From NCBI GenBank assembly GCA_048213135.1, contig PS015018.1:96166-129762 (forward strand): a stretch of DNA of 33,597 nt, read 5' to 3'. Positions 1-33,362 of the stretch are shown in pieces. Source of the DNA: Reclinomonas americana ATCC 50394. Taxonomy: Eukaryota. The stretch's first letter is position 1, and each line of letters starts with the position of its first letter. The position numbers and the translations under genes are program-made. A model generated the notes under the pieces. That model was not told the DNA's origin and ran no database searches. It saw only the letters and a list, made by a program, of their open reading frames with translations.

Positions 1-1630
1 CATTGCGGATCATCTGGACTACATTGTGGAGCTCGGAGCTGATGCTGTTGCGTCTCCCTCTTTCCCTCTGCATCTCTGTCTCTCTCTCTCCATCTCTCCC
101 TACGCAGCAGTTCACTCATCACACGCCTGCACAGATCTGGATTTCGCCGATTGTGACCAACTACGGCAGTGGTTATCACGGGTGTGTGTGTGGCCGTAGA
201 GAGAGATGCCTTGGTGTGGGGGAGAACTGACCTTTTTACACACATACCAGCTACTGGGTCACTGACCTGTATGGCGTCAACCCGCACTTTGGCTCCGCTC
301 AGGACCTCAAGAACCTGGTCGACAAGGCGCACAGCAAGGGCGTGTGGGTCATGGTCGACGTGGTCGCCAATCATGTTGCGTTCTCTCACTGCCTCGTCGC
401 TCCCCCCCTCCGTCACTCACCACCAAGTCGCTGGCAGGTGGGACCAGTGGGCACCGACTACAGCAAGATCAACCCCTTCAACTCCACCGACCACTACCAC
501 TCCTACTGCGAGATCAACGACTGGAACAACCAGCACGAGGTGGAATTCTGCCGTCTCGGTCAGTGTCGCTGCCCCGTTGGTCGCACATCCGCACACACTC
601 ACTTTCTACTCGCAGCTGGTCTGCCGGATCTCAACACGGAGAACGACTACGTCAGCAACACGCTGGTGTCCTGGATCCAGCAGATCGTCTCCGAGTACGG
701 TTTCGACGGCATCCGTATCGACACGGTGCCGGAGGTGCCGGCGTGGTTCTGGTCGCGTTTTGGTGCCAGCTCTGGTGTGTACCAGCTGGGCGAGGTGTTC
801 AACGGAAAGTTGTGTGCCGCCACCAAATAGTTAATTGTGTCGCTCAGCTGACCTGCTTTCTGCTCCCTCCCTTCCCCCACACCAGCATTCAGTACGTGGC
901 CGGCTACCAGAACTACCTCGACGGCGTGTTCCAGTACCCTCTGTTCTTCACGGCGCGCTCCGTCTTTGGTCAGCACCAGTCGGCACGCGGTCTGGAGTCG
1001 GCTTTCCAGCAGCAGCTGGCCACCTTCAAGGACCCCTTCGCCGTCGGCATCATCACCGACAACCACGACAATGCGCGCTTCCTGAGCTTCCAGTCGGACC
1101 ATCAGCTCTTCAAGAACCTGCTCACCCTCAATCTGTGTGCGCAAGGCATCCCCGTGCTGTACTACGGCCAGGAGCAGGGCTTCAACGGCGGCAACGATCC
1201 GCACAACCGTGAGCCGCTGTGGCCGACGGGTTTCTCGACAAACGGTGACCTCTTCAAGCACATTCAGACCATCATCGCCGCCAAGAAGAAGTTCCAGTGG
1301 CACTCGCAGGCGCAGGTGCAGCGCTACGCCGACGATCAGTTCTACGCCTTCACCCGCGGCAAGGTGTTTGTGGCGCTCACCAATGTCGGCAACGGCAACT
1401 CGACGCAGCGCACCATCACCTACCACCCGTATGCGAACGGCGACCGCCTCTGCAACATGTTGCGTGCCACCCGCTCCCTGTCGTTGTGTTTCCCCCTCTT
1501 TGCGCCAGTCTACTCAACAGCGTCGCATGAACACAGCTTCTTCCCGACCACCGACTGCTTCACGGTGGCGAGCAACCAGTTCTCGGTGTACCTGGGCAAC
1601 GGCGAGAGCAAAGTGTACGTGCCGCAGTGA
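1..1630 (+). CDS. Alpha-amylase, GH13 (fungal/Taka-amylase-like); 5'-truncated, 6 introns (47-134, 182-250, 375-437, 559-615, 809-885, 1459-1536)
   Basis: Spliced product contains LDYIVELGADAIWISP, GYHGYW, MVDVVANH, GLPDLNTE, FDGIRIDT, GEVF, DNHDNARF, GIPVLYYGQEQ and NREPLW, the conserved GH13 regions. Stop TGA at 1628-1630. Confidence 0.95.
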
Positions 1631-1770
1631 CAATGGATGCGCTGCTGGCGACCGAGTTTATTTTGACTTATGAAAGTAAACAACCGATGACCAAAAAGCA
1701 TTTAGCGGCATCCGTATTCGGTCACTTCCTCCCTCCCTCTTCCCACTTCCCTTCCTCCTCTTAAAACCCT

Positions 1771-30709: not shown

Positions 30710-30885
30710 AAACACGGAGACTCTGTCCGTGGGGACAACCAGTGGAGGTACGCCCACTGAGAATCTATCACCGAGAATCGAAAAAAGTGCAAGCTCGCCG
30801 GTGTGGACAGTCATCATTGTCGGTCATTTTCCATTAAGCACACACACACAGACACACATGCACGTGCAAAAAAAATAGTCGTTGT

Positions 30886-33362
30886 TCACACGACAAACGG
30901 GTGACTGAGGGCCTTCTCGATGGTCAGTCGGCGCGACGGATCCAACTCCAGGCACTTTTCTAACAAGTCTTTCAACTGCAGCACACGACGTGTCTCCTCG
31001 TCGGACACACTGTGACGCGCCGCCAACATCTGCACACGCAAGAGTGAGTAATCAACAACATAGGCACAGCGACTCGTGGTACGCGCACGAACCTCGGCTT
31101 GGAGGTTTCGTGAAGCGCGCGTGCCGTACGGAATCGTGTTGATGACGAACTTGCCGGCCGCCTTGTCATACTCCTCGTACCGGAAGGCCCACGTATCCGT
31201 ATCGTAGTGTCGTTCTGCAAACTGACCCTTGCGCAGCATCTTCTTCGAGAAGGCGCCCTTGAGGTCCATGTGCAGCTTCAACATCTCGTTGTTCGACGCC
31301 CCGAAGAACAGAATGCGACCCGTGTACAACTCGAAGAGCGTGGTGGCGAGCGACCACATGTCGATACTGTAGTCGTACTTGAGGCCGAGAACTGCACTCA
31401 CGGATATGGTCAAATTAGCGAGGCACCGCAATCACCACAAACAGCACCCGGTCCAGCACGCAACTGACTTCGGGTGGGCGATAGAAGCGCGAAATGAGGT
31501 ACGGCGTAATGTCGTTCTCGTCGGCGTAGCAGGCGGAGCCGAAATCGCAAATCTTCACAATATTCTTGCGATCGTTCACCACGAGGTTGTCGGGCTTGAG
31601 ATCGGCATGCAACACGTGACACTTCTTCAAGTGCTTCAGGGCAATAAACAACTGGCGCGCGTAAATGCGCACGGCCTCAATGTTGATGCCAACGGCGCGA
31701 CCCTGCTCGCGGCCAAACTTCTCCAGCACCTCACGCAAACTCATCCTGCAGTGGAGCGACGCAAAACGTCAGTGCAAAGGTGGGTGGAAGCAAGGGAGAA
31801 AGAGAGAGTGAGAGAGATCGCACACTTGGTGCACGCAACTCCATCGGCTCGAACACCAGGCACAGATGATTGCGGAACTCAAAGTGACGTCGAAGCTGCA
31901 CGCAGTGCTTCTTGTTCTGCGGGTCCTCCGATGCGAGCTTCTCCAAAATCTCCAACTCCTTCTTGCCGGTGCGGTACATGGTGTGGTTGTGGCGAATGAT
32001 CTTGACGGCGACAATCTCGTTGCACTGCTCCAAATCCATGCACTTGAGCACGGTGGAGAAGACGCCCTTGCCGAGTTGCGCGCGCACGAGGAAGCGGTCG
32101 TCCAGAACCTCGCCCGCACGGAATCCTGCGACACCATGCATGAGCAATCGATGCACGCGGCAGGGGGGAGGCAGACAAAAACAACAGAGCGCAACGATAG
32201 TAGCCTTCGGAGTCGTCCCAATTTTCGGCCAACAGCGGGTTGTAGGAGACGCCCTCGGCAGCCATGGCCTCATCGATCGTCACCAATGACTGCGCGTGCA
32301 CACACATACACGTAAAGGTGAGCAAGTGCGACAACCAGGGCGCGAGTGAGGTGTGAATTGTGCGCAACAGTCTTGGATGGTTCGGGAATGGGCGAGTCAC
32401 CAAACATGTCGTACTCGTCTGCGTCAGCACCCTTGCTGCTCGCGGCGGCGGCACTACCATTGGTCTTGACAGTCGTCGGTGCAACCGCGGATGCGGGTGC
32501 GGGTGCGGACGCGGATGCAGGAACCGCCGCTGCCGCCGGTGCTGGTGGTGGTGGTGGTGGCGGTGCAGCTGGTTGACGCACTGCATTGCTCGCAGGCGCC
32601 ATCTCCGGGTGACCTTCGGCGGCGCGCTGACTCTCCAACCTAATTTTTCCCCCAACGATGTCAGCAAGAAACGCACACACGCGCCCACTCACTGCGCGTC
32701 AAACTCAACTGCGACAACATGGCCTCTCGTCGCTTGCGCGCTTCCTCGCGCAACCGCAACATCTTGGCCTCCTCGTCCTCCCCGTCGTCCTCCAACATCG
32801 ATAGGAGCTTGCTCTCGTCAACCTCCATCGAGTCTCCATCGCTCATCTCACCACCGTCCGTACGCTTGCCTCTCGACGACTCGCCGCCACCCGATCGACC
32901 ACCGCCACCCGACGACCTCCGCGCATCGCCATTGTCGCGCCGATCGACTTCATCTCGTCGTCGATCATCGTCGCGCGAGGATCGTGGATCGTAGCGACCA
33001 CCGCCAGGGCCGCCGTACCTGAAATCACCAAAGGCGATGAGACGGAGGCGTCACCCGCAATGTCGCAGACACACAGACACACCTGCCACGGTCGCGCTCG
33101 CGATCACGCTCACGGTCACGCTCCCGATCGCCTCCTCGATAGTCGCGGTGGGCGCGACCATCGCGATCACGATCCCGCTCGCGCAGACGCTCCCTCTCCC
33201 TCTCGCGCTCCCTCTCCCTCTCCCTGTCACGCTCCCTGTCACGCTCACGCTCGCGATCTCGTTCCCTGTCCTTCTCCCGCGCCTTTTCCCGCTCCCTCTC
33301 CCGCTCCCGCTCGCGTTCCCGGTCCTTGTCTCGCTCACCGTCGCGATCACGACGCGAGGAAA
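30886..33362 (-). CDS. PRP4: Spliceosomal Ser/Thr kinase PRP4 with N-terminal RD/RE/RS region; at least 7 introns; first exon unresolved upstream of 33362
   Basis: [68 protein letters not shown] and NNEMLK are PRP4-family signatures. Confidence 0.93.

Follow-up and report, generated by a model that had tools for sequence, protein, structure and literature searches.

Two classes of 5′ splice site tied to the last exon base in a genomic window of Reclinomonas americana

Introduction

Roca and Krainer (2009, Nature Structural & Molecular Biology, NSMB) reportedly described how U1 small nuclear RNA (snRNA) can pair in a shifted (+1) register with atypical 5′ splice sites in human; bulge +2/+3 and asymmetric-loop registers are said to have been added by Roca et al. 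(2012). Here we analyze the 5′ splice sites, or donors, in a stretch of 33,597 bases from the genome of Reclinomonas americana ATCC 50394 (contig PS015018.1, positions 96,166 to 129,762; hereafter, the window), where donors typified by GTTGCGT, almost always following an exon that ends in A, C or T, occur beside donors with the conserved G at +5.

In human cells, U1 has been shown to pair in both shifted and bulged registers, each a minority (Tan et al. 2016, PMC4856993; review, PMC9311317). Tan et al. give 68 predicted bulge +2/+3 sites (54 after curation) and a table total of 10,248 predicted noncanonical sites; the original prediction, made from the sequence of the window, called +1-shifted sites rare in human. 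The GTT donors of the window are like the human shifted register, as these sources portray it, in that U occupies +3 after the GU at +1/+2, the conserved G-U is displaced inward by one base, the first GU still marks the cleavage site, and the pairs would be offset with G+1 facing C9 of U1 in the pairing proposed here. Unlike the human sites, which are rare, they make up 25-29% of the modeled introns (16/64 and 19/66), and they are tied almost exclusively to a -1 base other than G, mostly T or A. Their core is GC-rich (GUUGCGU), whereas the oligonucleotide tested by Tan et al. is GUCAAGUAU (PMC4856993). In addition, the human shifted register is backed by suppressor-U1 proof, while that of the window is proposed from the sequence. 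The bulge +2/+3 register, as far as it is set out in the same sources, is alike in its GUU start, in which either U can pair with A7 while the other is looped out, and in the displacement of the downstream pairs by one; it does not, however, explain why G is missing at -1 in the window.

Atypical donors specific to a lineage are known from Archamoebae, namely GUUUGU in Entamoeba, with a U1 reading ACAAAC, and GUGCGC in Mastigamoeba, with a U1 reading ACGUAC; a preference for C at +4 together with a standard U1 is reported for Thecamonas and Mamiellales (Roy & Bowser, bioRxiv 10.1101/2022.06.08.495308). The window resembles Archamoebae in having lineage-specific atypical donors and a +4 C preference, as in its GTGCGT; unlike the window, these organisms have a single consensus in the canonical register, and the accessible preprint text contains neither 'shifted' nor 'register' and describes no -1 dependence. 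GTGCGTG donors of Ostreococcus and other Mamiellales green algae (Irimia & Roy 2008, PMC2483917) resemble the canonical class of the window and also the tail of its GTT class (+8 G in 47%), but the Mamiellales are intron-poor and have one strict consensus, with no GTT class described in the accessible part of that paper.

In a full-text literature search, with supplements and subscription papers outside its scope, no GTT-type, -1-dependent donor class was found described as mainstream, and no GTT or shifted donor class of any kind outside human. Like U12-type introns, whose 5′ consensus is RTATCCTT, the GTT introns form a second and far more stereotyped 5′ class beside a looser major class. 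Their 5′ motif, however, is unrelated to that of U12-type introns, and they do not differ from the major class in branch-like motif, length or acceptor.

Results

GTT donors of the window and their support

All results refer to the one window of 33,597 bases, which is GC-rich (about 0.58), eukaryotic and interrupted by three runs of N. Introns are gene models made from the sequence with a home-made gene finder, and its donor calls are imperfect. Donors with G at +5 were classed as canonical, and those with T at +3, G at +6 and a base other than G at +5 as shifted. The original prediction had listed 30 GTT donors and claimed that they always follow A, C or T. All 30 strings are present at the coordinates given below, with G at -1 in 0/30, and the presence of two donor classes in the window is confirmed. 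The proportion claimed for the GTT donors was about 30 of roughly 90 introns; the models hold 64-66 introns, of which 16/64 and 19/66, i.e., 25-29%, are shifted.

Support that does not depend on the rule itself was obtained for 24 of the 30 listed donors; the remaining six are 7857, 14976, 24669, 23764, 32709 and 3679. One source of this support is a homologue-profile test, in which donor and acceptor were moved in every in-frame combination by up to 15 or 18 nt either way, whatever the dinucleotides, and the resulting proteins, about 300-450 splice variants per intron, were compared with a profile hidden Markov model (HMM) of homologues from other organisms. The profiles were built from 60 of 93 matches for the alpha-amylase gene, from 52 of 58 matches for the PRP4 kinase (last 480 residues), and from 8 full-length proteins among the 150 matches listed for the MFS_5 transporter. 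The shifted donors that could be tested by homology were best or near-best among their variants in 8/8 cases. For the amylase introns at 47, 182, 375, 559 and 809, zero variants (of 310-319 each) scored strictly better. GT...AG segments were the best-scoring ones to remove, and at 809, 31464 and 12700 no other boundary scores equally. A non-GT boundary one base further in (TT...GG) would give the same protein only if the next exon starts with G, and is excluded at these three introns. The profile test was uninformative, or the region unconserved, at 32368 and 31092 in the PRP4 kinase and at 13105, 12147 and 11569 in MFS_5, while the MFS_5 introns at 11806 (g/GTTTGT, the slash marking the exon-intron boundary) and 12350 ranked first among GT-AG variants.

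A second source is a donor-blind run of the gene finder, a home-made generalised HMM whose sole donor rule was 'GT'. It otherwise relied on 3-periodic coding statistics trained on the window itself, on the composition of introns and a prior on their length, and on a crude preference at the acceptor. This run picked 14/30 listed donors, eight of which (4524, 9361, 9909, 3382, 3019, 11569, 25406 and 32368) are new relative to the homology and paralogue sets. Models in which the donor is described by a position weight matrix (PWM) or by a first-order dependence, neither of which can couple -1 to +3, add five more (9461, 13512, 13887, 7576 and 7704); a relaxed run was also made with the first-order model. 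Three further donors (29006, 30231 and 30497) are fixed by tandem paralogues. A first, flat-signal run was set aside as too crude, since it gave 33 introns and merged introns with one another. Donor errors of the gene finder include 812 called for 809 and 565 for 559, 3-6 bases off, and homology corrected both. Across both strands, the donor-blind run called GTTGCG[TC] sites as donors in 12/39 cases, compared with 64/4708 for all GT (p=4e-14).

The shifted-class and listed sites are as follows, with coordinates, strand, identity and support; 'profile' gives the variants that scored better in the homologue-profile test.

Plus strand
47..134, plus: intron t/GTTGCGT...CAG, alpha-amylase; profile 0/319 better; donor-blind pick
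375..437, plus: intron t/GTTGCGT, alpha-amylase; profile 0/317 better; donor-blind pick
809..885, plus: intron a/GTTGTGT, alpha-amylase; unique top of 318 variants; donor-blind run took 812
1459..1536, plus: intron t/GTTGCGT, alpha-amylase; 7/318 better by <=1.2 bits, none of them GT-AG; donor-blind pick
4524..4584, plus: intron a/GTTGCGC, UPF3-like gene; donor-blind pick; Pfam Smg4_UPF3 on adjoining exon
4843..4893, plus: extra shifted-type donor t/GTTTTGT, absent from the earlier list; donor-blind pick
7576..7644, plus: intron t/GTTGCGT; first-order model, relaxed run
7704..7778, plus: intron a/GTTTTGT, TAG acceptor; relaxed run
7857..7934, plus: listed candidate donor t/GTTGCGT; donor-blind, first-order and relaxed runs took the in-frame rival 7854 t/GTTGTTG; frame open either way
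9361..9435, plus: intron a/GTTGCGT; donor-blind pick
9461..9534, plus: intron t/GTTGCGT; PWM and first-order runs; donor-blind run took 9452
9909..10044, plus: intron a/GTTGCGG; donor-blind pick; PWM and first-order runs ended the gene here
13512..13575, plus: intron a/GTTGCGA; PWM and first-order runs
13887..13955, plus: intron c/GTTGCGT, GAG acceptor; first-order run; donor-blind run took 13892, inside the motif
14976..14982, plus: listed candidate motif t/GTTGCGT; only 6 open codons upstream; coding scores weak
29006..29073, plus: intron t/GTTGAGT, tandem copy A; flanking exons conserved with copy B, intron diverged
30231..30286, plus: intron t/GTTGCGT, tandem copy B, homologous to the 29006 intron; paralogue alignment
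29294..29375, plus: canonical donor g/GTCAGT, copy A, homologous to the 30497 position; paralogue alignment
30497..30566, plus: intron c/GTTGCGT, copy B, class switch relative to copy A; paralogue alignment

Minus strand
3614..3679, minus: listed candidate t/GTTATGT...TATAG, from an N-terminal exon to a Rossmann-fold exon; open-frame join by eye; NAD_binding_8 on the next exon
3298..3382, minus: intron t/GTTTCGC, FAD/NAD-binding oxidoreductase; donor-blind pick
2958..3019, minus: intron t/GTTGCGT, FAD/NAD-binding oxidoreductase; flat-signal and donor-blind runs
12632..12700, minus: intron t/GTTGCGT, MFS_5 transporter; unique top of 441 variants; donor-blind pick
11500..11569, minus: intron t/GTTGCGC, MFS_5; flat-signal and donor-blind picks; profile uninformative, 198/449 better
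25331..25406, minus: intron t/GTTGCGT; donor-blind pick
24663..24669, minus: listed candidate motif c/GTTGCGT; gene finder took the rival 24698; coding scores weak
23758..23764, minus: listed candidate motif a/GTTGTGT; frames open; no acceptor singled out
32703..32709, minus: listed candidate motif a/GTTGAGT; gene finder took 32678 t/GTGTGC; protein region unconserved
32290..32368, minus: intron t/GTTGCGC, PRP4 kinase; donor-blind pick; sole GT-AG variant in range; profile uninformative
32126..32195, minus: intron c/GTTGCGC, PRP4 kinase; profile 0/299 better; donor-blind pick
31746..31839, minus: intron a/GTTGCGT, PRP4 kinase domain; profile 0/319 better; donor-blind pick
31392..31464, minus: intron a/GTTGCGT, PRP4 kinase domain; unique top of 318 variants; missed by every gene-finder run

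Donor class follows the last exon base

The claimed tie between donor class and the -1 base is borne out by the donor-blind run. Of its 32 donors after exons ending in G, 24 were canonical, none was shifted and 8 were of other kinds; of its 32 donors after any other base, 7 were canonical, 16 shifted and 9 of other kinds (canonical and shifted, 24 and 0 versus 7 and 16; p=1.6e-7). At least 2 of the 7 canonical calls after non-G are errors displaced from shifted donors, namely 812 for 809 and 13892, inside the 13887 motif. In terms of single positions, the same set has +5 G in 24/32 donors after G and in 7/32 after non-G, and +6 G in 3/32 and 17/32, respectively. With the first-order donor model, the corresponding counts are 25 canonical and 1 shifted versus 10 and 18 (p=2.1e-6). 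G precedes GTTGCG[TC] in 5/18 non-donor copies, about the background rate, versus 0/21 donor copies (p=0.015); on these counts we reject the idea that the heptamer is simply seldom preceded by G, whether it is a donor or not.

The original prediction called exceptions few and named 14536 and 10965; canonical donors after a non-G base are found at these two sites and also at 8697, all of them with the full GTG[C/A]GTG. A possible exception of the converse kind lies at 8445.

14536..14597, plus: exception, canonical donor t/GTGCGTG; first-order run; frames open on both sides
10965..11020, plus: exception, canonical donor t/GTGAGTG; relaxed run only, weak gene model
8697..8795, plus: exception, canonical donor a/GTGCGTG; donor recurs in every run; acceptor uncertain
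8445..8507, plus: possible exception, shifted-type donor after G, g/GTTTCGT; first-order runs

T at +3 occurs after G too, in g/GTTTGT (11806), g/GTTCGT (31092), g/GTTCAAG (28894) and g/GTTCTCT (30105); the first two retain G at +5. The last two are paralogous to each other, conserved between tandem gene copies A and B, and outside both classes.

These copies lie on the plus strand at about 28494-29600 (A) and 29638-30880 (B). They are small genes of no known family, with no Pfam match on one exon. The two are conserved in their exons and diverged in their introns. One common intron has a shifted donor in both copies (t/GTTGAGT at 29006, t/GTTGCGT at 30231), and another has a canonical donor after G in both (29121 and 30334). 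The third common intron differs, with g/GTCAGT in copy A (29294) and c/GTTGCGT in copy B (30497), and the junction codon is GTG in the former and CTT in the latter. The alignment of the two copies shows, for this single event, a joint change of the -1 base and the donor class.

Motif of each class and the 3′ side

The logo of the shifted class, made from the 30 listed sites, has T at +3 in 100%, G at +4 in 90%, C at +5 in 80% and G at +5 in 0%, followed by G at +6 in 100%, T at +7 in 77% and G at +8 in 47%. The canonical logo, in which +5 G is 100% by definition, has G at +3 in 73%, T/A/C at +4 in 42/27/27%, T at +6 in 73% and G at +7 in 42%. The shifted class is therefore much the tighter of the two; at the corresponding position, C is found in 24/30 shifted and 7/26 canonical donors (p=1.2e-4). 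The two classes had been predicted to superimpose with an offset of one base. This is true of the intron side, where +6 G and +7 T replace +5 G and +6 T and where +8/+9 resemble the canonical +7/+8, but not of the exon side, which is unshifted.

At -1, the shifted class has T in 53%, A in 33%, C in 13% and G in 0% of sites. In the phase-0 shifted introns of the models (n=11), where the -1 base is a wobble base, T is found seven times, A three times, G once (8445) and C never. T and A together account for 10/11 of these positions, versus 24% of third positions overall (p=5.7e-6), the background at third positions being T 15%, A 9%, C 36% and G 40%. Five of these phase-0 codons have synonyms that end in G; examples are GCT, CGT, ACT, ACA and CGA. 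Because T or A is found at synonymous -1 positions in spite of these G-ending synonyms, the exon end looks co-adapted with the donor, and not constrained only by the protein. That is, W (A or T) at -1 looks like part of a co-adapted motif.

Nothing on the 3′ side separates the two classes. The median intron length is 70 nt for shifted and 69 nt for canonical introns, base composition is similar, and the acceptor is CAG in 19/21 and 34/38 cases, respectively. A predicted branch-like motif, CTCAC, CTCAT or CTGAC, is found in both classes within the last 10-45 nt of most introns; in many eukaryotes the usual branch motif is of the CTRAY type, unlike that of the window. That branch-like motif, length and acceptor are common to both argues for one downstream machinery. 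We accordingly reject the idea that the GTT introns are a type apart, with 3′ signals of their own, and also membership in the U12 type, whose distinct 5′ motif goes together with a distinct, strict branch-site motif. The introns have the GT/AG ends of U2-type introns, with the predicted branch-like motif upstream of a YAG acceptor.

Gene content of the window

Genes with short introns fill the window densely, with 64-66 introns in the gene models (64 introns in 18 genes in the donor-blind run). Two genes were recognised from their long exons, the alpha-amylase (93 homologues, top identity 60%) and the PRP4-type kinase (58 homologues, top identity 58%). None of the matches was near-identical, so this organism's own proteins are absent from the collections searched. 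Pfam matches identify an MFS_5 transporter, a UPF3-like gene, a G-patch protein, an FAD/NAD-binding oxidoreductase and a GT2-like glycosyltransferase. An Rfam scan of the window returned 0 families, with no U1, U5, U6 or other snRNA gene within the 33.6 kb, and a tRNA scan of the window also returned 0.

The PRP4-type kinase gene (30886-33595, minus strand) encodes a long RD/RE/RS-like N-terminal region. The gene finder split it in two by reading through the intron at 31464-31392, and homology rejoined it. In the MFS_5 gene, many related database fragments stop at query residue 111 of exon 12703-13038 (minus strand), which is the exon end; this suggests that the intron position there may be common to other eukaryotes. 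For the FAD/NAD oxidoreductase, whose gene carries the donors 3382, 3019 and 3679, a homologue search with exon 2225-2710 found none at E<=1e-6. The C-terminal part of the UPF3-like gene (5523-6092, plus strand) is of low complexity and G/R-rich, with several open frames, and the frame of the model is probably wrong in part.

The GT2-like family comprises five tandem paralogues on the minus strand (16297-22628 and 26634-28046), whose long exon is 44-80% identical. Each has a Cys-rich N-terminal part and a glycosyltransferase exon with an invariant WDDDDVYDRDR. A metagenome scan with the alignment of these paralogues found 50 loci with a top identity of 37%, and no close relative among them. 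Most of the long microsatellites, of the types (GT)n/(CA)n and (GA)n/(CT)n, lie in introns and spacers (e.g., 4091-4218, 6842-6963 and 27904-28010), and the most over-represented heptamers of the window are TGTGTGT and TCTCTCT.

Discussion

Our tentative reading, to which we give a probability of roughly 0.45, is that both donor forms are read by the same major spliceosome, the second form one base out of register. The introns would then be ordinary GT-AG (U2-type) introns of about 50-100 nt with two co-adapted 5′ forms, G/GT[G]N-G-T and W/GT-T-G-C-G-T. In W/GTTGCGT, the conserved G-T would have moved from +5/+6 to +6/+7, and the helix of the intron with the 5′ end of U1, and later with U6, would form one base off the cleavage site. 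In a shifted version of this reading, G+1 would pair with C9 of U1, U+2 would face C8 unpaired, and U+3 would pair with A7. In a bulged version, G+1 would pair with C8, one U of +2/+3 would be looped out, and the remaining pairs would be displaced. Cleavage would stay before the first GU in either version. We infer this pairing register; the offset of one base on the intron side, up to +8/+9, is as predicted by a base-paired helix displaced by one base.

We consider the shifted version about twice as probable as the bulged one, because in it alone does the -1 base matter. As a shifted register calls for, every one of the 30 listed sites has U at +3, a base other than G at +5 and G at +6, and 77% have U at +7. 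A bulge at +2/+3 that keeps the pair of -1 G with C9 implies G at this position, which is found in 0/30 listed, 0/16 donor-blind and 1/19 first-order donors. The bulged version accounts for T at +3 and for the unshifted exon side, but not for the near-absence of -1 G, because G/GUUGCGU is predicted to be strong.

Several results weigh against recognition out of register. Duplex energies were calculated with nearest-neighbour parameters for the standard U1 5′ end (from Tan et al., PMC4856993) and for a variant with the ACGUAC core, ignoring pseudouridines and proteins. The shifted class is disfavored with both, at -1.2 kcal/mol for U/GUGCGU versus +0.5 kcal/mol for U/GUUGCGU with the standard U1, and at -7.1 versus -4.2 kcal/mol with the ACGUAC core. 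Furthermore, G/GUUGCGU is predicted to be strong (-5.6 kcal/mol with the standard and -9.9 kcal/mol with the ACGUAC-core U1) and yet is nearly absent. A shifted register on the standard U1 predicts A at -1, opposite U10, whereas the observed order is T > A > C. The exon side aligns unshifted, -2 being A/C-rich in both classes and the -2/-3 preferences likewise agreeing. Lastly, the sample is small, consisting of one 33.6 kb window with 64-66 modeled introns, some of whose donor calls are wrong. On the U1 5′ ends assumed here, GUUGCGU pairs best from U+3:A7 to U+7:A3, and G+1:C9 forms only if the -1 base is A. The proposal that the +1 G of the intron stands in for a missing -1 G is not supported by these energies, which show no simple gain from it; H/GUGCGU (H being A, C or T) binds better than H/GUUGCGU with both U1 ends. 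Taken as a whole, the interpretation given in the original prediction is partly supported.

A serious rival to offset recognition, although we regard it as unlikely, is that a second U1, or one altered at its 5′ end, reads the GTT class by direct complementarity to (U)GUUGCGU, while an ordinary U1 reads G/GUGNGU and the spliceosome downstream is common to both. The failure of single-U1 energies to explain the observed preference speaks for this idea, and the stereotypy of the GTT class (C in 24/30 versus 7/26, p=1.2e-4) fits near-perfect complementarity. A standard U1 offers no partner for the strong C at +5, which suggests a partner RNA with G there and fits a modified U1 of some kind; such a G would pair, as in the Mastigamoeba candidate ACGUAC (bioRxiv 10.1101/2022.06.08.495308). 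The preference for T at -1, synonymous sites included, could reflect an extra pair, but one extra pair leaves both A at -1 (33%) and the total lack of G unexplained. Precedents are found in the same preprint, in which the U1 of Entamoeba has co-evolved with its donors and Physarum is said to have candidates for a modified U1 beside standard ones, and human variant U1 genes are known. On the other hand, the 5′ end of U1 is among the most conserved RNA segments, and the preprint reports a standard U1 in Thecamonas and Mamiellales, other lineages with +4 C (bioRxiv 10.1101/2022.06.08.495308). A related arrangement, which we hold to be doubtful, would have two parallel readers on one spliceosome, with a second U1-like RNA or an altered U1 end reading W/GUUGCGU off register, and with the choice made by the -1 base and the inserted U.

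More improbable is that the pattern arises after U1 or from a protein, i.e., that the spacing between the exon held by U5 loop I and the intron held by the U6 ACAGAGA box, or a preference of Prp8 or U1-C, favors the extra U if the -1 base is not G. U1 duplex energies do leave the pattern unexplained, C is avoided at -1 besides G, which is not an effect of U1 C9, and the exon side is unshifted; against this, the conserved G-U and the positions that follow it move by exactly one base, as a base-paired helix predicts. Finally, that splicing uses sites other than the GTT strings, and that the rule came from choosing donors by eye or from chance, is very improbable and largely refuted, for although independent support was obtained for only 24 of the 30 listed sites and three of the other six compete with in-frame rivals, the donor-blind model recovers both the class and its -1 link, 8/8 homology-testable donors are best or near-best and three of these are unique optima at which no other boundary gives the same protein, the junctions are conserved in the paralogue pair, and where the heptamer is not a donor, it is preceded by G about as often as the background would have it.

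For annotation, the consequence is that a single donor matrix blurs the two classes; our own runs skipped a real intron (31464) and misplaced two donors (812/809 and 565/559). If a variant U1 were at work, the resulting case of two readers would join the few known examples of co-evolution between snRNA and splice site. So far, off-register pairing of U1 is known from human alone, where it is a rare mode of rescue. If recognition by one major spliceosome in two registers is true, a genome with between a quarter and a third of its introns off register, under a clean rule of G or not G at -1, would be a natural system in which to study how the cleavage site is fixed when U1 binds one base off, and how exon ends and intron starts co-evolve.

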